Shown piece by piece: positions 1 to 54,064 of a DNA stretch of 64,000 nucleotides. Made by a program: the position numbers and the translations under genes. Source of the stretch: a virus. The stretch spans positions 1-64,000 of the IMG/VR virus record IMGVR_UViG_3300009080_000001. One strand, given 5' to 3'. Within the stretch, counting starts at the first letter, position 1, and the number at the start of each line of letters is the position of its first letter. The notes beneath the pieces are model-generated. The model saw only the letters and a list, made by a program, of their open reading frames with translations, was not told where the DNA came from and did not search any database.

Positions 1-1792
1 CAAGTAAATCTTCACCATTAGGTCTGATTGTAACAGGAGTTCCAGAAGGATCTTGAATGATTAATACTTTCATATCTCCATCTGAGTAATTAGCGTCTGA
101 AGCGTCATAGTCAAATGAGATCGTAAGTTTCTTAGCAAGGTCTGCAGAGTCTACAGTAAAGTCAACATAAACTTGTTCACCTGAAGCATCAGCAGCAGCT
201 TTAGCAATTTGTAAAGAACCTAGTCCTCTTAATTGTCCAGAAGTAATTCTAGAAATAACTAGGTTTGTATCTCCAGTATATCCAGAGGTATCAACTTCAA
301 AGTCGCTGTTTTCGATATAGTTAATTGCAGAGCTAGGAGCTTTCGCTGATTCCCAATCCCCAGAACCTGAGTTGTAAGTTAAAACCTCACCTTCGTTTGG
401 TGCGGCAACTGAAACATCCGATAAATCATCTAAAGCAACTGTAGCTGCTTCTAACGTATCTACTCTTCCTTCAACTTCGTCGATTGCTGCTTGAGAATCT
501 GTAGCAGTTAATCCTGAAGTAGAATTGTCGTATGTTATATCAGTAGCACTTGTTGCGATATCTTTAGCTTCCCATCTAGAGTTACCGTTATCGTAAATTA
601 ATGCTTGACCATCTGTAGGAGATGGTGCAGATACATCAGATAATTCATCTAATACTACGTCTTGTCCAACTACTGCAGGTCTATATACTTTAACTTGTAA
701 TGTATTTGCATCCTCTACATAAAATAGTGGATTTGAAAATGAACTTGGTTCAACATTTGTAGCTTGTCCTGCAACAGAATCTGATTGAAAGTAAAACTCT
801 CCAACTGTATATCCATGAGCTGGTACTTCAATTCTTCCAAAGTCAGCAGCAATAAAATTATCTACATCAATTACTTCAACAATTGCGAAGTAAGCTAGAG
901 TATCTGCATCATCAGATTGAGCTTTTACCCAAGTAGTTCCGTTATGGTAAACACCTTCACCGACTGCAAATCCGTGAGCAACTTGTTCTATTTCAAAAGA
1001 AGTAGCTCCGCCTCCACCAATAGCTTGAAGTTCGTTATCTACAATTTGATACATCTTTTGAGTATCAGTAGCAAATACTATTTGACCATCAGCAGCAGAT
1101 CCAGCATATGTTTCTAAGTTAGCTTCTGTATCTTGCTTTACGTCTGATCTAGTAGGAGTCTCAATTGATCCTGATATTGTATTTGTGCTATCTAATGTTT
1201 TATTTTGTAATGTTTCTGTTTTACTTGGTAATGCGTCTATTTCCGTTTGAAGCTCATCTAAAGCTCCTTGTACGTCTGTAGCGATTAAGTTACCAGTTGG
1301 TACGTTAGATATTGCAGAAGCATCGTGAGCGTCTACAGCGTCTGCTAAGTGATCAGAAAGGCCTGTCTCAGCAGTATCTACTCTTCCTTCTACTTCGTCT
1401 ATAGCAGCTTGTACGTCTGTAGCTGTAAGTCCACTAGTAGAGTTATCATAATCTATCTCAGAAGCTTCATTTTGACCGTCTAAAGCCGTTTTAACAGCTA
1501 ATGCTGATGGTAGTTCAGTATCTGAAGTAGCAGTGCTTATATCAGTGATTAGAACGCCAGCTTTAAGATTATCTGTTTCTATATTTGAAATTGTGTTGTT
1601 GTCTGCGTCAATATCTTTATTTGTTACTGTTTGTACTTGATCTTCTGTTACGATTGATCTTTCAGCACTATCTACATACGCTTTAAATTTAAGCGCAGAA
1701 GGGTCTAATCTAATCTCACCTTCTAAAGTAGCTGCATCTGTGGAACCTTTTAACCTGATTCCTTTGGTAAATTTTCTGCTTTTAATTGCCAT
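1..1792 (-). CDS. Tail fibre / large virion structural protein, runs off the window edge
   Basis: ATG at 1792 (MAIKSRKFTKG...); same frame reads as protein at position 2. Internal repeats YDNSTSGLTATDxQAAIDEVEGRVDT and LxxLSDVxxxxPxxGxxLxY..W typical of fibre proteins. Absent from ORF track because it has no stop. Confidence 0.75.
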   Translation of the reverse strand, partial: MAIKSRKFTKGIRLKGSTDAATLEGEIRLDPSALKFKAYVDSAERSIVTEDQVQTVTNKDIDADNNTISNIETDNLKAGVLITDISTATSDTELPSALAVKTALDGQNEASEIDYDNSTSGLTATDVQAAIDEVEGRVDTAETGLSDHLADAVDAHDASAISNVPTGNLIATDVQGALDELQTEIDALPSKTETLQNKTLDSTNTISGSIETPTRSDVKQDTEANLETYAGSAADGQIVFATDTQKMYQIVDNELQAIGGGGATSFEIEQVAHGFAVGEGVYHNGTTWVKAQSDDADTLAYFAIVEVIDVDNFIAADFGRIEVPAHGYTVGEFYFQSDSVAGQATNVEPSSFSNPLFYVEDANTLQVKVYRPAVVGQDVVLDELSDVSAPSPTDGQALIYDNGNSRWEAKDIATSATDITYDNSTSGLTATDSQAAIDEVEGRVDTLEAATVALDDLSDVSVAAPNEGEVLTYNSGSGDWESAKAPSSAINYIENSDFEVDTSGYTGDTNLVISRITSGQLRGLGSLQIAKAAADASGEQVYVDFTVDSADLAKKLTISFDYDASDANYSDGDMKVLIIQDPSGTPVTIRPNGEDLL

Positions 1793-2518: not shown

Positions 2519-3784
2519 TTAAGCTACTTTGATGTTGATAAGAACACAAAGAGATGCTGGTCTAGCAGTAAATAATGCTTGATCAGTGTAACATCTCATT
2601 TCGATACCATGAGCGTTCTCAAGAAGCTCTAAGTACTCTTCACCATCTGGTCTTTTGAATGTTACTTCTTCAGAACCAATTCTCTTAAGATCTTTCTCAC
2701 AAGCTAAGTAAGAGTAACCTTCTTTTACGAAAGTAGAAGCGATTACTTTGATAGATCCGTTTTGTCCGTGGAACATGATTTCTCTTGATCCATTTTCTTG
2801 TTTAGCTGGAGAATATGAGCTATCATATTGTCTCTTAGCGTCGATTTCAGTTAATAGTGAGTTCCATTGCTTAGGGTTAACATAACAAGAAACTTCTTCT
2901 TCCATTAGACCTTTCTCAACCATTGCGGCGATACCTTCTTCGATTTTACCAAAAGAAAGAACAGCAGCGTTAGTAGTTGCATCAGTTCCAACTTCTACGA
3001 TAGACCCTTGAAAAAGAGGCTCTGCAGAGTTGTTGATTCCAAATAGGCTTGATGTTTCAGTTGCGATTCCGTGAATTCCTAAAAATTCATTTCTTACACC
3101 AGCGTTAGCAGCAGCACCTTTGAAAAAGATAACGTCGTCAGCTTGAATTTCAGCAGCACCTAAGTTACCAGCAGCTTTCTTAAGAGTAACTGATCTGTCA
3201 GCTAAAGAGTAACCTTCAACTTCGTAAGAAGCTACTAAAGAACCTGCAGAGAATACTTCAACTTCTGCATTAGATGTACCATTCCAGATACCTGCAGACC
3301 ATTCAGCTTCTTGAATTGAAACTGCTTCAGATGGAGCACCACCAGTAATATCAGTCTTAACTACACCAATTCCAGATTGTCCGTAGAACATTTGTACTTC
3401 TAATCTGTGGTATACTGATTTAAGCATGTTACCTACCATAAGGTCCATTGCTTTTTCGATTGCTTGCTTGTCAGAACCTGAACGAGATAGAGCACCGATA
3501 GAGATAGCAGATCTTAATACTAATTCTCTAGCTTTGATTGAAGCTTTTCTCATTTTGAATTCTTTAACGTCGTTAAGTGTAAAAAGAGATCCATCCTCTC
3601 CACCATAAGTAAATCCTGATTCTAAAGATAGGATAACTGGTTCATTGTAGCTATCTCCTACTTTCTTAGATGTGTCAAATTTTACTGCGTTGTAAAGTTT
3701 AACATGATCAGGTACTAATTGTTGTACTTTGTCAGCGTATCTTTCCTTAAAAAGACCGTTTAGCGTTGATACTTCGTTTGCCAT
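2519..3784 (-). CDS. Major capsid protein
   Basis: 421 aa after scaffold and portal; strong RBS, own promoter motif and terminator; HK97-like C-terminus. Confidence 0.8.
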   Translation of the reverse strand: MANEVSTLNGLFKERYADKVQQLVPDHVKLYNAVKFDTSKKVGDSYNEPVILSLESGFTYGGEDGSLFTLNDVKEFKMRKASIKARELVLRSAISIGALSRSGSDKQAIEKAMDLMVGNMLKSVYHRLEVQMFYGQSGIGVVKTDITGGAPSEAVSIQEAEWSAGIWNGTSNAEVEVFSAGSLVASYEVEGYSLADRSVTLKKAAGNLGAAEIQADDVIFFKGAAANAGVRNEFLGIHGIATETSSLFGINNSAEPLFQGSIVEVGTDATTNAAVLSFGKIEEGIAAMVEKGLMEEEVSCYVNPKQWNSLLTEIDAKRQYDSSYSPAKQENGSREIMFHGQNGSIKVIASTFVKEGYSYLACEKDLKRIGSEEVTFKRPDGEEYLELLENAHGIEMRCYTDQALFTARPASLCVLINIKVA

Positions 3785-11633: not shown

Positions 11634-11706
11634 AATATACTGAATAATATTTTATTTGTCAAATACTATTTTAATCCTTGACAGTACTTGTACTAACTGT
11701 TATCTT
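11634..11706. promoter_or_regulatory. Divergent sigma70-type promoters
   Basis: Minus: TTGACA (11662-57)-17-TATATT. Plus: TTGACA (11678-83)-17-TATCTT with ATG at 11712 (likely leaderless). Confidence 0.7.
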
Positions 11707-12720: not shown

Positions 12721-12997
12721 TAGATATCCAATAGTTAGGCGTAATAATCTCAACGTAATGATAATTAGAACAGAAGGAAATGGTGACAATTTGGACTTTA
12801 TAAGCTTTGTAGAAACTGACGATGGTATTAAATATGAAGATACAAGTGGTCATAGAATGCCTTTAAAGGATATAATTATAGAATCTAATAGCGGAACTTT
12901 TGGCCTAGAGAGCGTTGTTAAAACTAGACTAGCAGAAAAAATGTGCAAGGTACTAGGGGAAACTGAGAACTATTATATTATTAAGGGAGAGCAGTAG
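12707..12997 (+). CDS. TRLARK-box protein
   Basis: VVKTRLAEKMCK at C-terminus. Confidence 0.7.
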   Translation: MATSNRYPIVRRNNLNVMIIRTEGNGDNLDFISFVETDDGIKYEDTSGHRMPLKDIIIESNSGTFGLESVVKTRLAEKMCKVLGETENYYIIKGEQ

Positions 12998-13203
12998 TGG
13001 GAATGGGAACTATAAGAGTACCTAGAGATGAAGAAATACCTATATACAAAACGGTAAATGATACTAGGCTCGCTCGTAAAATGTTCCCGGATTTTACTGA
13101 TAATAAAGATGGAACCTTAAGAATAATAACTGGTTACGGACCGGAGCCTGTTATAGTAGGTTCAGAAAAGGGATTTACATATATAGGAACGCCAAAAAAA
13201 TGA
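12997..13203 (+). CDS. TRLARK-box protein with capsid-like peptide
   Basis: VNDTRLARKMFPD followed by EPVIVGSEKGFTYIG. Confidence 0.75.
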   Translation: MGMGTIRVPRDEEIPIYKTVNDTRLARKMFPDFTDNKDGTLRIITGYGPEPVIVGSEKGFTYIGTPKK

Positions 13204-13469
13204 GAATACCACCAAGAGCTAAGAAATCACAAGAGATTATAGACCAAATGGTTAACTGGTTGAACTATTATATGGGAACTAGGCCCGAATTTAAGGACTT
13301 TATCAGAAATGATATCAAATACTTAGAAGAATACCTATCAGAAATTAGTGAAGAGCATAAAGTTCACAATATTAGATTTGCTACTAAGTTAAAGAGTCTT
13401 TGGAAGTGGGAATTAGAGGAAAAAGAAAGAGAAATCAAGCAATTAAAGGCGGAATTGGATGAAAAATAA
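13200..13469 (+). CDS. Hypothetical protein
   Basis: Coupled ORF. Confidence 0.6.
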   Translation: MRIPPRAKKSQEIIDQMVNWLNYYMGTRPEFKDFIRNDIKYLEEYLSEISEEHKVHNIRFATKLKSLWKWELEEKEREIKQLKAELDEK

Positions 13470-13950
13470 GAAAATAGGTCAGGGATTAGGGACACAGATC
13501 GATGAAAGGTCAGGAAACGCTAGAGCTTTGGCTATGTCGCAACAATTACAGCAAATGGGAAACCTTTCTGGTCAGACACAATTAGATGTTCTTTACCAAA
13601 AAAGAATGGCTGAGTATGAGAAACAAAAAATGGAATATGAAAATCAAAAAAGACAACATGAGATGGTAAAAGAAGAAGCACTTAGTAGATTAGACGAAGT
13701 ACTAGAAAATTCTGGAATACCACTAAAAGGATCTGATTATTTTAACATATATACCGATATATTCACAGAGGTAGACGCTATAAGATGTTTTGGTAAGAAT
13801 TATAATCCTAAAGAGGTTTTTAATGAAGTATTTACAAAGTATATGAATAATAACTACGATGAAATAACAGATACTAGGCTGGCAAGAAAGATGTATCCAG
13901 ACGCTAGGCCTAATAAAGACGGTAAGTTATACGTGAAAAAGGAAAAATAG
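13459..13950 (+). CDS. TRLARK-box protein with portal-like peptide
   Basis: RSGNARALAMSQQLQ near N-terminus; ITDTRLARKMYPD at C-terminus. Confidence 0.75.
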   Translation: MKNKKIGQGLGTQIDERSGNARALAMSQQLQQMGNLSGQTQLDVLYQKRMAEYEKQKMEYENQKRQHEMVKEEALSRLDEVLENSGIPLKGSDYFNIYTDIFTEVDAIRCFGKNYNPKEVFNEVFTKYMNNNYDEITDTRLARKMYPDARPNKDGKLYVKKEK

Positions 13951-14235
13951 TTGAAAAATAAGCGTAGAATAGAAATATACCCAACAAATAGAATGGCAGA
14001 ACACGTAATACGAGAATTCCACGATAAGAATGCGGAATTCGTATCATTCTTCGACCTTGGAATGAAAACACTATGTTACAAAGGCACATATATAGGATTC
14101 AGAGGTGAAACATACTCCAGAAGACTAGAAGGTTTACAGTTTGATGAGCTATATGTCCACCCAGATTGTAAATATAGGGGAGTTTATATCTCAAGAGCTA
14201 TTGACAACGGTGCAAAGATAGTGTATAAAATATAA
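13951..14235 (+). CDS. Truncated terminase-ATPase-like protein
   Basis: YPTNRMAEHVI ... LEGLQFDELYV ... GAKIVY parallels TerL motifs. Confidence 0.5.
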   Translation: MKNKRRIEIYPTNRMAEHVIREFHDKNAEFVSFFDLGMKTLCYKGTYIGFRGETYSRRLEGLQFDELYVHPDCKYRGVYISRAIDNGAKIVYKI

Positions 14236-14248
14236 AAGGAGTTAAATA

Positions 14249-15055
14249 ATGATAAAAAGAGATATAAATATGTTAGAGTATCTATGTAAAGTTAGCCCAA
14301 AAGAATTTACAAGAAAAACGAGAGAAAGCGGGCCTATAAGAACATATTTCTACAGAAAATGGATATATTCTCCGATGGGAGGTTTCGAAACATGGGACAC
14401 AATGGCAGAAGTTAATCTAGAAAAATATAAAGTTACATACTATAACGGATGGGGGAAGAGGTAAATATGAAAAAATTTAAAGTATTATGGGAAGAGAGAG
14501 TTGAGAAATCTGTGTGGATTGAAGCCTCCTCTGAAAAAGATGCTGTAGAAAAACACAATGAAGGCGAATATAGTAATGACTCAGTAAATGAAGAGTGGTT
14601 AGGATTCGACGACTCTTACGTTGTAGATAGCAAGGATATAGAATAATGTTCGACTATATGGTAAAAGTACTGCCGAACGGTAACTTATTAGTGCGTGACA
14701 GCCATTCTAAGACATCCGAGGCTATTAAGGCAAGTGAGATATCGGATTATTTCCAAAAGGCTTTAAAAGAGCAATTAGAGGCTGAGAAAGAGAATGACCA
14801 GAAACATAAGGATGTTCGAGAGGGAGCCTTTAAATTATGAAAAGAATAGAAAAAATGATGACATACAGGAATGATCCGTATTCTAATAATATAATAGAAG
14901 ACGATTATCAGTTAGTAGGTATAGATTATATAGTCTCTGCTTGGAATTGGGACCACTCTAAATCAAACGACGAATATTACTGTGTAAAATTAGCTCATTT
15001 TGGAAGTATTGTCCACATAAAGAAGGAAGACCTAGATAAAAAGGTAAAAAAATGA
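14249..15055 (+). CDS. Four small hypothetical ORFs (14249-14464, 14467-14646, 14646-14840, 14837-15055)
   Basis: Tightly coupled ORFs with RBSs. Confidence 0.55.
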
Positions 15056-15381
15056 ATAAAACATATACAAGAATGCAAAAACAAGTAGTTAACGACACTA
15101 GGTTAGCTAGGAAGATGTATCCAGACTTCACTGATAATGAGGATGGTACTATCACAATTGAGGTTGAAGTAATCTCAGACGGATTCGGGTCTGGTGGTAT
15201 ATTGACTGCTACAGACGTACAAGATGCAATAAATGATATGCTGACCAAAGGCTTTGCTGCGCCATCAGAAATCATAGTAAACCCTAAACAATACGCAGAG
15301 TTACAGAAGTTAATAGATCCAGATGACATGGATATTAAGGTTAGTAACTACTGTCCTGATGACAAGGTATATATAAAATAG
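15052..15381 (+). CDS. TRLARK-box protein with capsid-like fragment
   Basis: N-terminal VNDTRLARKMYPD; IVNPKQYAELQKLID. Confidence 0.75.
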   Translation: MNKTYTRMQKQVVNDTRLARKMYPDFTDNEDGTITIEVEVISDGFGSGGILTATDVQDAINDMLTKGFAAPSEIIVNPKQYAELQKLIDPDDMDIKVSNYCPDDKVYIK

Positions 15382-15884
15382 GAGAATAAGTAGTGGGAAT
15401 AGCTGTAGGTATATTGTTAATAGTTAATATGTTTTGGATAATGCCGACATTATATAGAATTGAGAAGTTATTGGAGAGAAAATGAAAGGACATTACGAAG
15501 ACGATACTGACGCAAAGAGATTATTATTAACTATATTCTGTGTAGCCGCTATTTCAGGGCTATTAAGCGCATTTATTTATTAGGTGTATTATGATTGAAA
15601 ATGTTATTAAAAATATTTGGATTACAACTAGGATATTAGCTGGAGCCTTGACAATACTGGCGGCTATTAATCTATCAAATCAAGATATAATAGGAACATT
15701 ACCATTTATAAGTATTATTATATGTGGATTCTTTACAATAGCTAAACAACATGATTAGGTGTATTAACATAAATATACCCATATCTGTTTTCTGACACTA
15801 CTTTGACCAATACAACTGACTTAGAACCACATACCCCCCTACCCCCTAAATATATTTTGTTTACATAGAATATACGCACCTATC

Positions 15885-15996: not shown

Positions 15997-16444
15997 CACA
16001 TAGTGCCAACTATATATGGCAGCTCAGAATGCTCTGTGTCTGCGTTTGTGGGTATAGTGCTTATGATTGTATAGGTTAATTTCGGAGGCTTTACAGAGGC
16101 TATTCTGTACGTGTGAGGAGTCAAGGTTATTTATTAGATAGTAACATTGTTTATTAGCGAATTATTATATTGGTAATATGCGGATAGTTAGCGTATACTA
16201 GTATTAGGAAATGACACAACGTATTACGGGAGTTATATATGTTAATAGAGTGGATAGTCGGAGTATTATATGCAGTACTGAGTATGTTTGGTAAGGTTGT
16301 TTATATGATTGAAACGTATGTAAGTAGTGATAATTTAAAGTAATTTATTAATTCATCTAGTTATAGGAGGTGATAAACAGTATCTATTTAATATTTAATA
16401 CATCAAATACAAGTCTTAATTCTAAGCGGTCTAATTTAACCTAG

Positions 16445-16770
16445 TTATAAAGCCCCGATCATGGGGCGATCTACTTCAATAAGTTAATACATTTAAAAGG
16501 TTTGAAACAAGGCATTACTAAACTTTACTAGTATATAAGGACACTAGCCGAAAAGTAATGCTAAATAGATTATGTTTATGCCGATACGATAGTATCACTT
16601 TCTCTATTTGGCTTTTGCTGTAAAGCAATTTAGTTTAGAGGTTGAAGCGTTCCGCTTGAGTCTTTTAACAATCGTTTCTCAAGTACTCGTTATCTTAATC
16701 TGATGTGTTCCGAGCCTAGTCGTCATTCTTTTCGCAAAGCCGTGACATTTTTTAACGGTCTTCATTCTCT
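16445..16770 (-). ncRNA. Candidate late structured ncRNA
   Basis: Late motif upstream, many helices, terminator-like hairpin at 3' end, no substantial ORF. Confidence 0.5.
16447..16467 (-). terminator. Terminator-like hairpin
   Basis: GCCCC-ATGATC-GGGGC followed by TTTAT. Confidence 0.5.
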
Positions 16771-16774
16771 TATT

Positions 16775-16789
16775 ATATAGTTGTTAAAT
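16775..16789 (-). promoter_or_regulatory. Late promoter-like motif, copy 5
   Basis: Exact 15-mer with no convincing CDS downstream. Confidence 0.7.
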
Positions 16790-17170
16790 ATATTGTACGT
16801 ATCTTTTCCGTAACAGGTATTTATTTTCATTATTTCAATGATTACGGTTACTTAGTCTTATTAAAATAGCTACAATAAAATTACATGATGCCTGACTATA
16901 CTCTCCAGTTAGATACAGATATAATCCTAAACCTACATTAAGTAAAAATATTATATATTCAAATTTTTTCATAAATAAAAATTCCTTTATTAAATAGTCC
17001 CCAGAAGTCATCACAAATCGGGGGACTAAATAAGTTTAGTTGATGCGGTAGGCTTTACGCATCTTTGTCCAGTTGCCTACTCTAATAATATATCAAAATT
17101 ATAGGATTCAATCAAGAGCTAAATTAGCAAGTGTAAATATTACAATCGGTAAAAATTACATACTTTCATG

Positions 17171-17349
17171 AGGAATATACGCAACTGCCATAGATAGTTG
17201 GCTGTTCAGATTAGCTCAGGATTCATTTAAAAGTTTTTTGAAGGTGGTTATACACAGAACATTTAAAGAGCTTAGAAGCATGATTCTGTTACGATTAAGC
17301 CTATGAATAGTATTTATTTAGGGATTTTTTACAAGGAATATACGCAACT
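17171..17349 (+). repeat. 16-bp direct repeat AGGAATATACGCAACT (17171-17186, 17334-17349)
   Basis: Exact match; partial third copy near 15868. Confidence 0.7.
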
Positions 17350-17510
17350 AAAGAAAAATTAAGTTGACTAAATAAAATTAGTTGTTGTCAAGCTTTTTCT
17401 TGGGATTGTAAATATTACCTATCTAATTTTTAGATCATAGCTATCTAATTATTATATTTGTGTTTATGACACGATATGTTATTCTAGTATTAGAAAAGGA
17501 GTTAACAAAA

Positions 17511-19440
17511 ATGAAAAAAACAAAACTTAATGGAGTATCACTAAATCTTATTAAAAATGCTATCAAAGATATTGAAAAGAATAACTATTATAACTATTCA
17601 TATTGGGGATATAGATTTAATAAGGTAAGTAATTTTATAACTCATAAACAACATATGGTTGAAATGATATTAAAAAACATTGAAAAAAGAAGGTTATTAA
17701 ATGGAAAATAAAAAAATGAAACAAATGATTAAAGACTTAAACGATATGATTATAAAGTATCATGGTATTAAAGAGCTTGAAAGCGAGCGTGACGATCTTT
17801 GTAATATCCGTTGGGTGTTAGAGAACAAAGTAAGAAAAGCAACGTATAATAGTGAAAAAAGGGAAATTGAATATTATGTGTAAAAATTACACACAGAGTA
17901 AAATAAATATTGAGATAAATTAAAAAGTGTAGTATAATAAATTAAGGAAATAATTAGTCAACGGAATGGCGCAACACAAAATGAGGTAAGAAATGAGCGC
18001 AAAAGGATTCACATTAAATACAACAAAAAAGCAAGGTGTTATAAGAGTATTAGATTTAGGCATGGGATTAAAAGCTGTAGATTATAGAGGTACTCAAGTC
18101 GTGCGAGAATTGAGCTATAAAGCGATTCAATTAAATACTAATGGTTGGTTAACAGTTACAAGTAAAAGGGCTATAAACCGATATTTCGACCTTAGAAGGC
18201 TACCTATGAGATTAGTACAAGAAAAATTCGTTTGGTATGTATATTTAAACGGTAAAAAATTACAGTATGATGATAATATGGTTATTGATTTAGGACTATG
18301 TGCCTAAATTTCCTATACAGTGTGTTAGACTCATGGAGGAGTCAATTTTAAACAAAAATTATTGAGGTGAAAAGATGAGTGATTTAGATATTGTTAAAAG
18401 AGAAAATGTTATTGAAAAATTAGCCCAAAAAAGGACTGATGATGTCGATACTCAAACATTAATGGAAATGTTTCAAGAAAATCAAATATGCTATTTAGAA
18501 AATATGTCAGATAATGAACTGTTAGAACATTTAGAAGATTATGAAGAGTTCGACCTTTTAAAGGAAATCAAGTAAAATTTACATATAGTATTGTTTTAAA
18601 GTAAAAATATGATAATATATAAATAGAAGTTGTTAACACAACGAAAGGAGTTAAGAAAATGATTTATTTAACGTATACAATTGGATTTTTAATGGTAGCA
18701 TTTACAGGGTATCTAATACTAAAATATAACGCTGAATTTAAGGCTGTAAAGGTTCGTACTAGAAAATATATAAGATATATGCGCAAAACAGATAGAAAGC
18801 GTTAGGATTGAAATATGGAGTTATTAGCGGTATTATTATGTATAGGGTTCATCATAGCATGGGTAAGATTAATTAATATAATGAGGTAAAAATGGATTAT
18901 AAAACTGTTTTTAGGTTAACTTTTGATGATTTTGAAAGTGTTTTAGGAAGAGATTTAACCGACGACGAAAAAGATACCGTACTAAACAAATTTAGTTTAG
19001 GAGATTGGTGGGAAGAGGTTGAGTGTTTTTTAGATATTCATAATATTAAAGGAGATAAATAAAATGGAACTGTGGAGTGACAAGAAACAAAAGAAAGGTG
19101 ATAGAATCTCACTAAACAAAAACGGTAAGACTTACATAGTAAAGTCATGTGAGCATACTGGAAAATATGACAATAGAGATCATTATAAACTTAAGGTAAG
19201 ACTTGAAAAAAAGGAAGTAATACAATGATTTTATGGTTTATAGGTGCAGTAGTAACGTCTGTAATAATTACACTAGGTCTAGCCTATGGCGGTTTTATAT
19301 GGTATAATAAAAAGTTAGAAGCTCAAGCTAAAGAAGCTACTGAGGAATTAACAAGAATATTACAAGAACAATTAAGTCAAGAAGAAAACGACTATGTGAA
19401 TAAATTACATAGCGGTAACAGTAAAGGATTTTTACAATAG
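17511..19440 (+). CDS. Cluster of small early hypothetical ORFs (incl. 17701-17883, 17993-18307, 18375-18575, 19225-19440)
   Basis: Short ORFs with strong RBSs. Confidence 0.55.
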
Positions 19441-41582: not shown

Positions 41583-43955
41583 GTGAAAGAACGTAAACTA
41601 GTAATAGTTGATAATATAAAGAAATTAGCAGAAGCTATAACACATATAAATACTTACGATATATTAGCATACGATATAGAAACTACTGGACTTATTCCTA
41701 CTAAGGAAAAGGTTATAGGGTTCTCAGTATGCGGTAAAGTAGGTGAAGCATATTATATTCCACATTTAACTTGGGATACTACCAAAAATAAACTAGTCGA
41801 AGTATTCAGCTTCAGTAAAATATCCTCCATTTTAAATTCGTTAAAAGGTAAAGAGTTACTGATGTGGAACGGTAGTTTCGACGTTAGATTCACCAGAGAT
41901 TATTTCGATATAGACCTTACAGAAGAATTATTCGCAGATATTATGTTAATGAAACATACAGTAGAAGAAGAGGGTCAATTTAGCTTAAAAGGCTGTGCAA
42001 TCCAGTACCAAGAAGAGATTGGACTAGATGTAGCAGAAGACGCTAACAAAGAGCAGATAGCCTTAAAAGAGAACGTAGCTAAGAATGGCGGTACAACTAC
42101 TAGAGCTAAGTACGAGATGTATAAGGCTGATCTAGACGTTATGGGTGTGTATGCCGCAGCCGATGCAGACCTTACATTAAGACTTGCAAACCTATTCAGA
42201 GAAAAGCTTGAAAAAGAGGAATTAGAGGACTTCTTTTATGATGAAGAAGTTATGCCTTTATATAAGTATGTAACAATGACAATGGAATCTAATCCAGTAC
42301 AATTAGATATTGATAAACTTAAATACTACAAACATAAGATAGAGCAAGATATAGTTAAATTACATGATGCTATTGTTGCAGACTTATTAACAAGCGTTAA
42401 AGTACAAGCATGGTTAGAAGAAGTAGCTAAGACTAAATATCCGCCAAAACCTACTGGAAACTACGCTCAAAGAGTGGTAGAGAAATTCGGACTAGATTTA
42501 CCAAAATCAGCATCAGGGAAGTACAGTATTTCCAGAAAGAATGTTGAGAAATTACCAGATAGTGACGCTAAAAGCTTCTTATTAAAAGAGAGTAATATAG
42601 AGCCGGAATTTAAGGTAAAAGATACAAGGTTAGCACGTAAGATGTATCCGGGCTGTGTAGAGAAAGATGGTTGGTTAGTACCTGCTCAAGATATGTCAAG
42701 TATTTCAGTTGAATTATGGGAAGAACATAATGGTGGTAAAATCAATATCTCATCTAAAAAGCAAATGGGTGAAATAGTATTTAATTACATGAAAGTTAAG
42801 CCTTTAACTAAGACCTTAAAAGGTGCGCCACAATTTAACGATGCTTTAATTCAATATTTAGCTGATAATCAGTTTTCTTGGGCTAATGACCTTAGTGACT
42901 ACAATAAGCTAATTAAGATCAAGTCAGCATATATCGATAGATTCTTGGATAATAACCAAGATGGTAATTATTACTTTTATTACAAACAACATGGAACATT
43001 ATCAGGACGATATAGTTCTGACGCACAGCAGCTACCAAGACCTAAAGAAGATGGAGAACTATCACCATTAGTACTTGAATATAACAATGCTATTAGGTCG
43101 TTCTTTGTCGCTGGTGAAGGTCGTAAGTTTATTGATGCCGATTATGAGTCGTTAGAGCCACATGTATTTGCACATGTATCAGGTGATGATGGGTTGAGAA
43201 ATATCTTCCGTAAAGGTCATGATTTTTATAGTACTATTGCTATTCAAACAGAGAAGCTTGGGGAATTTAGTGCGGATAAGAAGTCCGAAAGTTACCTTGG
43301 GAAATTAAACAAACCATTACGCCAGAAGGCTAAGGCTTATAGTCTAGGCGTTCCATATGGCATGACACCTTATGCCCTAGCTAAGACATTAGAAGTGGAT
43401 GAGAAGGAAGCTAAGAAGCTATATGATGGGTATTTAGACGGGTTTCCAGAGCTTAAGAAGTGGATGCAGAAGAGTAAGAGAGATGCACAGTACAAAGGAT
43501 TCGTTAAGACGCAAACTGGACGTATTAGGCACTTAGATAGGGTTAAAGAGCTACATGCTGAACATGGTGAGAAATTACTTAATTTTAAATACCGTAAAAA
43601 GCTTGAAAAACAAGTAGCTAAGAAACTTGGTGGATTTGAAGCATCTAAAGAAGTTAAAGGTATGTACCTTGATTATAAGAATGGTATAAATAATAGCCGC
43701 AACTTTCAGATTCAAGGATTATCGGCTAGTATTGTAAATAAATCCATGATACTGATTATGCAGGATTTTAGGGACGAGAATATAGACGGTTACGTATGTG
43801 CAACAGTACATGATCAGATTATTGTTAACGTATCTGATTTAGATCTTGACAGAGCTATAGAAATAGTGCAATATAGAATGACAACGGTTGTTGAGCTATC
43901 AGTTGATCTGAAAGCTCCGCCAGAAATTAGCGATAATTTTAGAGATGGACATTAA
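41583..43955 (+). CDS. polA: DNA polymerase family A with 3'-5' exonuclease and internal TRLARK box
   Basis: DIETTG exo I; SGRYSS; DADYESLE motif A; KAKAYSLGVPYG motif B; HDQ motif C. Confidence 0.95.
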   Translation: MKERKLVIVDNIKKLAEAITHINTYDILAYDIETTGLIPTKEKVIGFSVCGKVGEAYYIPHLTWDTTKNKLVEVFSFSKISSILNSLKGKELLMWNGSFDVRFTRDYFDIDLTEELFADIMLMKHTVEEEGQFSLKGCAIQYQEEIGLDVAEDANKEQIALKENVAKNGGTTTRAKYEMYKADLDVMGVYAAADADLTLRLANLFREKLEKEELEDFFYDEEVMPLYKYVTMTMESNPVQLDIDKLKYYKHKIEQDIVKLHDAIVADLLTSVKVQAWLEEVAKTKYPPKPTGNYAQRVVEKFGLDLPKSASGKYSISRKNVEKLPDSDAKSFLLKESNIEPEFKVKDTRLARKMYPGCVEKDGWLVPAQDMSSISVELWEEHNGGKINISSKKQMGEIVFNYMKVKPLTKTLKGAPQFNDALIQYLADNQFSWANDLSDYNKLIKIKSAYIDRFLDNNQDGNYYFYYKQHGTLSGRYSSDAQQLPRPKEDGELSPLVLEYNNAIRSFFVAGEGRKFIDADYESLEPHVFAHVSGDDGLRNIFRKGHDFYSTIAIQTEKLGEFSADKKSESYLGKLNKPLRQKAKAYSLGVPYGMTPYALAKTLEVDEKEAKKLYDGYLDGFPELKKWMQKSKRDAQYKGFVKTQTGRIRHLDRVKELHAEHGEKLLNFKYRKKLEKQVAKKLGGFEASKEVKGMYLDYKNGINNSRNFQIQGLSASIVNKSMILIMQDFRDENIDGYVCATVHDQIIVNVSDLDLDRAIEIVQYRMTTVVELSVDLKAPPEISDNFRDGH

Positions 43956-53018: not shown

Positions 53019-53243
53019 ATGATCGGTTGGAAAAACGTAAAAGATACAAGATTAGCTAGAAAGATGTTCCCTGACTTTAAAGAGTCCGAAAAAGACGGGT
53101 ATATTATGATCCCAGAACCTATAGATTTAACTAATACTACGTTTGCTGAAAGAGCACATATAGCTGAACAATTGTTACAATACGGACTTATTACTACAAA
53201 AGAAGAATATTTAAAAATAATTGATAATATCCAACAAAAGTAG
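53019..53243 (+). CDS. TRLARK-box protein with portal-like fragment
   Basis: N-terminal VKDTRLARKMFPDF; AERAHIAEQLLQYGLI. Confidence 0.75.
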   Translation: MIGWKNVKDTRLARKMFPDFKESEKDGYIMIPEPIDLTNTTFAERAHIAEQLLQYGLITTKEEYLKIIDNIQQK

Positions 53244-53299: not shown

Positions 53300-54064
53300 A
53301 TGAAGAAACTACTTTTAGCAATTATGCTACTACCAACACTGGCATTCGCCAATCTAAACACAATCAAACTTACTGATAAAAACACTATCAGTTTCAACGA
53401 ACAATTCAATGCAATGACTGTTGCAGCAAAACAAGCACAATTATTCGAATTAGCATCTAGTTCACAAGAAAAGGACTTATATATAGTTATGTATACTCCC
53501 GGTGGCTCAGTATCTGCTGGAGCTTTATTTATCGATACAGCAAGAGCATTAGGTAAGAACATTCACACAATCACTATTTTCAGCGCATCTATGGGCTACC
53601 ACACCGTTCAAGGACTTGGCAAGAGGTATATTCTACCATCTGGGGTTCTAATGTCTCACAGAGCTTATGTAAGCGGATTACAGGGTCAATTTCCGGGTGA
53701 ACTAAATCAAAGAGTTGAGATGCTTATGAAGTCTACTGAAGACCTTGATAAGATTGCTGCTGCTAGAGTTGGTTTAAGTCTTAAGGAATACAAATCTACT
53801 ATTCACGATGAACTATGGTTAACTGGTGCTGATGCTGTTAAAAGAGGTCATGCTGATGAAGTTGTACAAGCTATCTGTGGAGAAAGTCTAAGTGGATTAT
53901 ACGAGAAAGTATTTAACACATTCTTTGGACCAGTTATTGTTGAATTTGCTAATTGTCCATTAATTGTAGGACCAGTTAATATCAAAGGATCAAACGAAGC
54001 AATTATGGAAGTTAAAAAGAACATCCTAGACGATGTAACTAAAAAGGTTAAAACACTACTATAA
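53300..54064 (+). CDS. ClpP-like protease with signal peptide
   Basis: MKKLLLAIMLLPTLAFA; TPGGSV, SASMG, LMSH; TTGACA at 53245. Confidence 0.8.
   Translation: MKKLLLAIMLLPTLAFANLNTIKLTDKNTISFNEQFNAMTVAAKQAQLFELASSSQEKDLYIVMYTPGGSVSAGALFIDTARALGKNIHTITIFSASMGYHTVQGLGKRYILPSGVLMSHRAYVSGLQGQFPGELNQRVEMLMKSTEDLDKIAAARVGLSLKEYKSTIHDELWLTGADAVKRGHADEVVQAICGESLSGLYEKVFNTFFGPVIVEFANCPLIVGPVNIKGSNEAIMEVKKNILDDVTKKVKTLL

Follow-up and report, generated by a model that had tools for sequence, protein, structure and literature searches.

An early phage protein that joins a TRLARK box to a probable miniature of the HK97 capsid A-domain

Ccm, encoded by the satellite SaPIbov5, is homologous to the capsid protein of the helper phage and redirects the size and shape of the capsid (PMC8569155, PMC5052747; PDB 7rwz), and CapRelSJ46 is a host defence that senses the major capsid protein of a phage, so that the capsid is a recognised immune trigger (summarised in PMC13728456). 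The protein considered here, P0001, comes from an uncultured marine phage and is encoded by open reading frame (ORF) 15052-15381 in the first 64 kb (the window, that is, the whole 64,000-nucleotide stretch that was analysed) of the 84,758-bp virus record IMGVR_UViG_3300009080_000001. Its likeness to HK97-fold capsid proteins and encapsulins lies in the core of their A-domain: a helix, a strand leading into a (V/I)(N/S)PKQ(W/Y/F)..L helix, and two strands. In sequence and predicted secondary structure P0001 matches residues 275-363 of the phage's own capsid protein, 250-327 of HK97 gp5 and 227-296 of PfV. It differs from these proteins in that the module is only ~60 residues long, has a 26-residue deletion and is without the N-arm, E-loop, spine helix and P-domain; it is also fused to a presumed docking tag (the TRLARK box), lies in an early operon and forms no shell.

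P0001 and Ccm are alike in being products of non-capsid genes, homologous to HK97 capsid proteins, that could act through capsid-like contacts. Ccm, however, is a full-length HK97 fold that is encoded by a satellite and built into the shell, whereas P0001, known here from sequence, is a fragment smaller than a domain, encoded by the phage itself in an 84.8-kb virus record that is estimated to be complete. With CapRelSJ46 the analogy is functional only: defences that sense the capsid are partners of the sort at which a decoy made of a capsid fragment would be aimed. The literature yielded no record of a phage-encoded capsid-fragment decoy, nor any description of a phage that has retained a tagged sub-domain of its capsid protein as a product expressed in its own right. 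The features on which the comparison turns are these:

15052..15381 (+): P0001, 109 amino acids, with homologues in ~13 protein clusters; flank ratio of nonsynonymous to synonymous substitution rates (dN/dS) about 0.1-0.2 versus the close relative L011
15088..15168 (+): TRLARK box, residues 13-39 of P0001; strand, short helix, strand; predicted local distance difference test (pLDDT) 77-83
15172..15264 (+): swapped cassette, codons 41-71, comprising a linker and a helix with LTATDVQDAI; proportions of synonymous (pS) and nonsynonymous (pN) differences from L011 of 0.58 and 0.53
15199..15378 (+): probable miniaturised HK97 A-domain core, residues 50-109; helix 53-67, strand 74-76, helix 78-87, strands 95-97 and 107-108
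2519..3784 (-): major capsid protein, 421 amino acids; HK97 fold, into which a beta-barrel is inserted (residues 138-224)
2696..2962 (-): segment of the capsid A-domain, residues 275-363, that is probably homologous to P0001 50-109 (hhalign, BLASTP, secondary structure of the capsid model)

The 421-amino-acid product of 2519-3784 is the major capsid protein of the phage and has the HK97 fold. In its structural model the elements of the A-domain are a helix at 278-290, a strand at 298-302, a helix at 304-317 and strands at 335-340, 343-349 and 357-361. Across 21 homologues with overall identities of 54-91%, residues 276-311 hardly vary; a capsid profile had no match among PDB sequences. The initial annotation of this DNA had described 15199-15378 as a compressed capsid fragment following a box, and had added that the same fragment matches a tail-fibre repeat. 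Its coordinates and strings are right: 15199-15378 is residues 50-109 of ORF 15052-15381, the capsid stretch 2840-2962 is residues 275-315 of the 421-amino-acid ORF, and the fibre stretch 1394-1429 is residues 122-133 of ORF 2-1792 (-). The identities that it quoted, 8/14 with the capsid and 9/12 with the fibre, are correct as well.

BLASTP aligns capsid residues 263-315 with residues 38-89 of P0001 (17/53 identities, pairwise E 3e-5), and a comparison of P0001 with the 329 genome ORFs yields a single hit, the capsid (E 1e-3; the next value is 1.4). This hit alone is only marginal, because in an unbiased screen, with 108 early ORFs as queries and 35 late proteins as targets, reversed and shuffled databases get to E 0.004-0.013. 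As far as sequence comparison can decide, it is the profiles of the family that settle the reality of the capsid resemblance. A profile of the post-box region finds the capsid at E 1.7e-4 (4.3e-4 without P0001, 3.7e-4 without P0001 and P0005), and a profile made from the four most distant members alone does so at E 2.6e-5; with the leave-out profiles the capsid is best among 330 genome ORFs, over residues 276-322 or beyond, the next ORF standing at ~0.3. Each of the 120 capsid homologues is matched by the profile (median 10.9 bits, where reversed sequences score 0.8 bits at most), and in 115 the match falls at residues 260-300. Six-frame searching with the A3 profile also reaches the capsid gene of a related virus, G002 (E 5.7e-4, profile positions 40-96). 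A profile search of the phage's own genome returned only boxes among the 20 candidates listed, the capsid not among them; the local hmmsearch found the capsid.

Alignment by hhalign of 13 family members with 21 capsids spans 65 columns (E 1.4e-4, probability 52%). It lays residues 50-109 of P0001 onto capsid residues 275-363 with one 26-residue gap, and it takes in the C-terminal IKV...Y strands; the compressed alignment drawn in the initial annotation, final strands included, is borne out by it. Capsid residues 317-342 are the part without a counterpart in P0001, and identity between the two proteins is 23-32%. The module carries the sequence signature of the A-domain core (helix, strand xNPxxW/Y..L helix, two strands). 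A complete HK97 fold, with N-arm, E-loop and a P-domain containing the spine helix, is not present in these 109 residues; only capsid 275-363 has a counterpart in P0001, which is thus not a capsid protein.

Searches beyond the phage's own capsid lead to the same fold. Among the 13 members, six match Linocin_M18 in Pfam, and there are matches to Major_capside, Phage_cap_E, SU10_MCP and Gp10A-like as well, all of them below the gathering score; for Linocin_M18 the value is 16.8 bits against a threshold of 24.3, and the match is limited to positions 150-187 of the 253-position profile. Among the sequences of the PDB, the family profile retrieves 2e0z, a virus-like particle of Pyrococcus, together with four EncA encapsulins. 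An exhaustive VIA search with the low-confidence model of P0001 places 25 HK97 capsids or encapsulins in the top 50 rows, all at low Z, and in each of these 25 rows it is the A-domain of the capsid or encapsulin that aligns with model residues 46-109 (HK97 250-327, for example, or 2e0z 227-296 at 26% identity). The two kinds of alignment to 2e0z concur: by structure, model residues 51-109 fall on 227-296, and by sequence profile, 46-82 fall on 229-267. The nearest named clusters in the ESM Atlas include an SrpI-like encapsulin and SU10_MCP at 0.83, which is below the level that counts and serves as a lead only. It is very probable, on the weight of these comparisons, that residues 50-109 of P0001 are homologous to the core of the capsid A-domain.

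The other module, the TRLARK box, is a stretch of ~25 residues whose motif lies within residues 13-36 of P0001. Its consensus, V-x-D/N-T-R-L-A-R/K-K-M/L-Y/F-P ... D-G, is present in P0001 and is conserved at the level of the peptide; third codon positions and synonymous sites differ between copies, so that the peptide is the conserved unit. At least 18 ORFs of the genome contain it: a simple pattern finds 18 copies, all on the + strand between 13 and 53 kb (tblastn finds 12). Most stand 11-16 residues ahead of a stop codon, and one is inside the 790-amino-acid ORF 41583-43955. The box is joined to many otherwise unrelated small proteins; P0001 has the same ~25-residue box as these, but bears it at the N-terminus and follows it with a domain, whereas in most other carriers it is C-terminal. 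It is the best-predicted part of the P0001 model, and the sole PHROGs match of P0001, to a 43-position family, falls on it (E 0.034). In P0014, a giant protein of 6343 amino acids, seven separate stretches match residues 12-64 of P0001 (E 9.6e-5), and this protein may contain box-like repeats.

P0001 is not the only box protein with a piece of a head protein:

12997..13203 (+): sibling ORF in the same operon; box and a peptide matching capsid residues 48-62 (E 0.006)
53019-53243 (+): box protein with a tail matching portal residues 498-535 (E 2.6e-6)

A relative of the first of these, P0019, has 15/25 identities to the capsid at E 2e-6. With at least three box proteins carrying head-protein pieces (capsid twice, portal once), P0001 is no isolated oddity. 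The portal match of ORF 53019-53243 is the strongest early-versus-late match in the genome, and this ORF is located just upstream of a ClpP-family gene (53300-54064).

The family of P0001 is small: a search of 1.84 billion representatives gives 11 hits, and one of 5.8 billion proteins about 13 clusters. In all members the box comes first and the domain follows. Neither the DNA nor the protein has a match in the phage GenBank collection, a scan of IMG/VR with the family profile found no relative, and there is no family member in 16 related virus records (capsids 39-91% identical; seven of the records at least 90% complete). P0006 and P0012 are encoded by genomes of 86.8 kb and 84.6 kb. L011 and the distant L013 preserve the synteny of the gene with an 'MFDYM' ORF and the sibling box protein. 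In L013 the family is represented by two paralogues, at 2502-2822 and 2961-3281, about 140 bp apart, and one of them, P0010, is without the two C-terminal strands. Relative to L011, DNA identity is about 95% over codons 1-40 and 72-102 (dS 0.14-0.29, dN 0.03), and codons 41-71 are saturated. These values mark a replaced cassette inside a gene under purifying selection, and two types of cassette recur across the family. In P0011 and P0139-141 the box half is near-identical and the domain half only about 40% identical, with the break at the junction. ORF 15052-15381 is a real, conserved gene under purifying selection; its product is composed of two modules, it is capsid-homologous, and it contains a mosaic cassette. 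The gene lies ~3.4 kb inside a densely packed rightward array, the first rightward operon.

These properties suggest a scheme for what P0001 may do. It would be an accessory early protein made of two modules, the box (13-39) and a capsid-derived module (50-109). The box, which the phage has put on some two dozen of its early proteins and inside its DNA polymerase, would be a docking handle for one shared partner. The second module would be a stand-alone, shortened A-domain core (helix, strand, helix, two strands) derived from a major capsid protein in the lineage of this phage; lacking N-arm, E-loop and P-domain, it is unable to build a shell. The A-domain piece would stand in for the capsid in contacts with a factor that recognises this part of it, and the box would tether the resulting complex to the box partner. 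We put forward, tentatively and with less than even confidence, that P0001 serves as a capsid surrogate with a tag, and that its likeliest role is to decoy an outside factor that recognises capsids; the binding, the partner and the decoy role are all conjectural. The decoy is favoured over a role in the phage's own assembly because of the early position of the gene, its patchy distribution, and an exchanged helix cassette set against a fixed capsid helix. The target would be a variable outside factor, either a host immune sensor of capsids or a capsid-binding protein of a competitor or satellite.

Several observations weigh against this scheme and the homology on which it builds. The structural model of P0001 is weak (pLDDT 66, predicted template modelling score 0.37), and Foldseek found nothing in the PDB at E <= 0.001 with it. 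Taken singly, P0006, P0011, P0012 and P0013 have no significant BLASTP match to the capsid, and hhalign probabilities are just 33-52%. Lastly, a freely exchangeable helix is not obviously what one expects of a mimic of the capsid surface; the helix may simply be unconstrained.

The reading that survives next best, though a doubtful one, is that the module would descend from the capsid A-domain and would now serve, as a small and stable alpha/beta domain, some purpose that has nothing to do with capsids, as one of the many different cargoes of the box. The presence of the box on so many otherwise unrelated small proteins, a capsid identity as low as it is here and the free exchange of the helix are all in keeping with this exaptation; the occurrence of head-protein pieces in three or more box proteins is not, being unexpected if cargo were drawn at random. 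An extension of the decoy proposal that we regard as unlikely is a 'bait-and-tag' system in which the capsid A-domain core, a capsid E-loop strand and a portal segment, each tagged with TRLARK and made early, would capture host or satellite factors that recognise the head and would hand them to the tag partner for sequestration or destruction. ORF 15052 would then be the A-domain bait, and the helix cassette an element of specificity in an arms race.

It is distinctly unlikely that P0001 regulates or tethers head assembly in the phage itself, as a mini A-domain that would dock on the A-domain of the phage capsid and so delay assembly or recruit capsid protein to the site of the box partner. 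In favour of this, the homology of the module is with that part of the capsid protein from which the centre of the capsomer is formed, where neighbouring subunits dock, and the operon also has the capsid-like and portal-like pieces. There is also the precedent of satellite Ccm, which co-assembles with the helper capsid protein (PMC8569155), and 7rwz is among the VIA rows. Yet the lack of any member in the 16 related records argues that this is not a core assembly factor, the gene is in the first rightward operon and not in the late module, and the helix of P0001 varies where that of the capsid is conserved.

A total lack of homology, with the capsid resemblance a chance or convergent helix-strand-helix motif in an unrelated small domain, is very improbable. 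It would account for a BLAST E value (1e-3) barely better than the best control (0.004 in the 108-query screen), and for an hhalign probability of at most 52%. Against it, the leave-out profiles, the six-frame hit in G002, five Pfam families, the encapsulins of the PDB and the structural enrichment (25/50) all converge.

The fibre resemblance concerns one further feature:

1394..1429 (-): fibre-like repeat unit LTATDVQAAIDE, residues 122-133 of ORF 2-1792; one of three copies; match to P0001 judged coincidental

The product of ORF 2-1792 is fibre-like (its tail-fibre match in PHROGs is weak), and the P0001 motif LTATDVQDAIND has 9/12 residues in common with one of its three repeat units (pairwise E 0.004-0.02), with a core of 16 identical bases in the DNA. 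The match reported in the initial annotation does exist, but it does not rise above chance: a genome match of at least 16 bases is found in 72 of 2000 codon shuffles (3.6%; p about 0.036), and the family profile reaches the fibre at E 0.06, or 0.44 without P0001. P0001 has the unit just once, over 12-13 residues, and does not belong with the phage fibre repeat proteins. Its fibre-like motif is on the helix that aligns with capsid helix 278-290. It is present in P0006, P0139 and P0140 and partly in P0010 and P0141; P0005, P0007 and P0011 have unrelated sequence in its place. In the form LTAT(D)(V/I)Q.AI the motif occurs even in P0139 and P0140, members of only 42% identity, and in P0006; since distant members carry it, it is an old alternative allele of the helix and not a recent copy of the fibre gene. 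The resemblance to the fibre is read here as the probable coincidence of a common helix-start motif. A motif that lies on the capsid-aligned helix, as one of two alternative cassettes, leaves no second, separate mimicry module. The chimeric double mimic suggested initially, with one segment copying the capsid and another the fibre repeat, perhaps by way of a short gene-conversion patch, is on these grounds scarcely credible, even with the shared residues and bases and with a motif that lies within a cassette clearly exchanged by recombination.

The virus record has direct terminal repeats and an estimated completeness of 100%, and near-identical DNA of the phage is present in several marine metagenome runs, no RNA run being among those listed; in three marine DNA runs, contigs spanning ORF 15052-15381 show zero differences and no population variants. 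The start ATG of P0001 shares bases with the TGA of the preceding ORF, 14837-15055. An antisense ORF, 14958-15329, was considered as the true gene and dismissed, as the homologues, the synteny and the dN/dS pattern all suit the + frame. The rightward array originates at a divergent promoter-like region near 11.6-11.7 kb that faces the packaging and head genes (large terminase, P22-like portal and the capsid gene, 2519-3784). A consensus scan of this region gives two candidates:

11678..11706 (+): candidate sigma-70-like promoter of the rightward operon; 10-11/12 matches by consensus scan alone, which is not evidence of function
11662-11634 (-): divergent candidate promoter facing 11678..11706 (+), from the same scan

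Compared with L011, the early operon from 12900 to 15800 is a block mosaic of conserved and replaced stretches: at 13470-13938, 14280-14642, 14840-15036 and 15361-15752 L011 has unrelated DNA, and the intervening blocks are 76-93% identical. Downstream of the P0001 gene, 15393-15758 (+) holds three tiny hydrophobic ORFs (30, 33 and 55 amino acids), in place of which L010 and L011 have another set of ORFs. Farther on, 16395-17093 and 17128-17527 are poor in ORFs and ~29% GC; their DNA identity to L010 and to L013, the distant relative, is 72-78%, the pattern of a conserved and apparently non-coding region; scans of 15.3-17.6 kb for tRNAs and against Rfam found no match.

Bacterial immunity is known to be triggered by capsid proteins, and satellites target them. 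If P0001 is indeed a capsid surrogate or decoy, it would represent a new strategy of counter-defence or competition, and would offer a way into what the TRLARK tag network does. On the minimal reading, the core of the HK97 A-domain can persist as an independent domain of ~60 residues, which bears on how the HK97 fold is built and dismantled.
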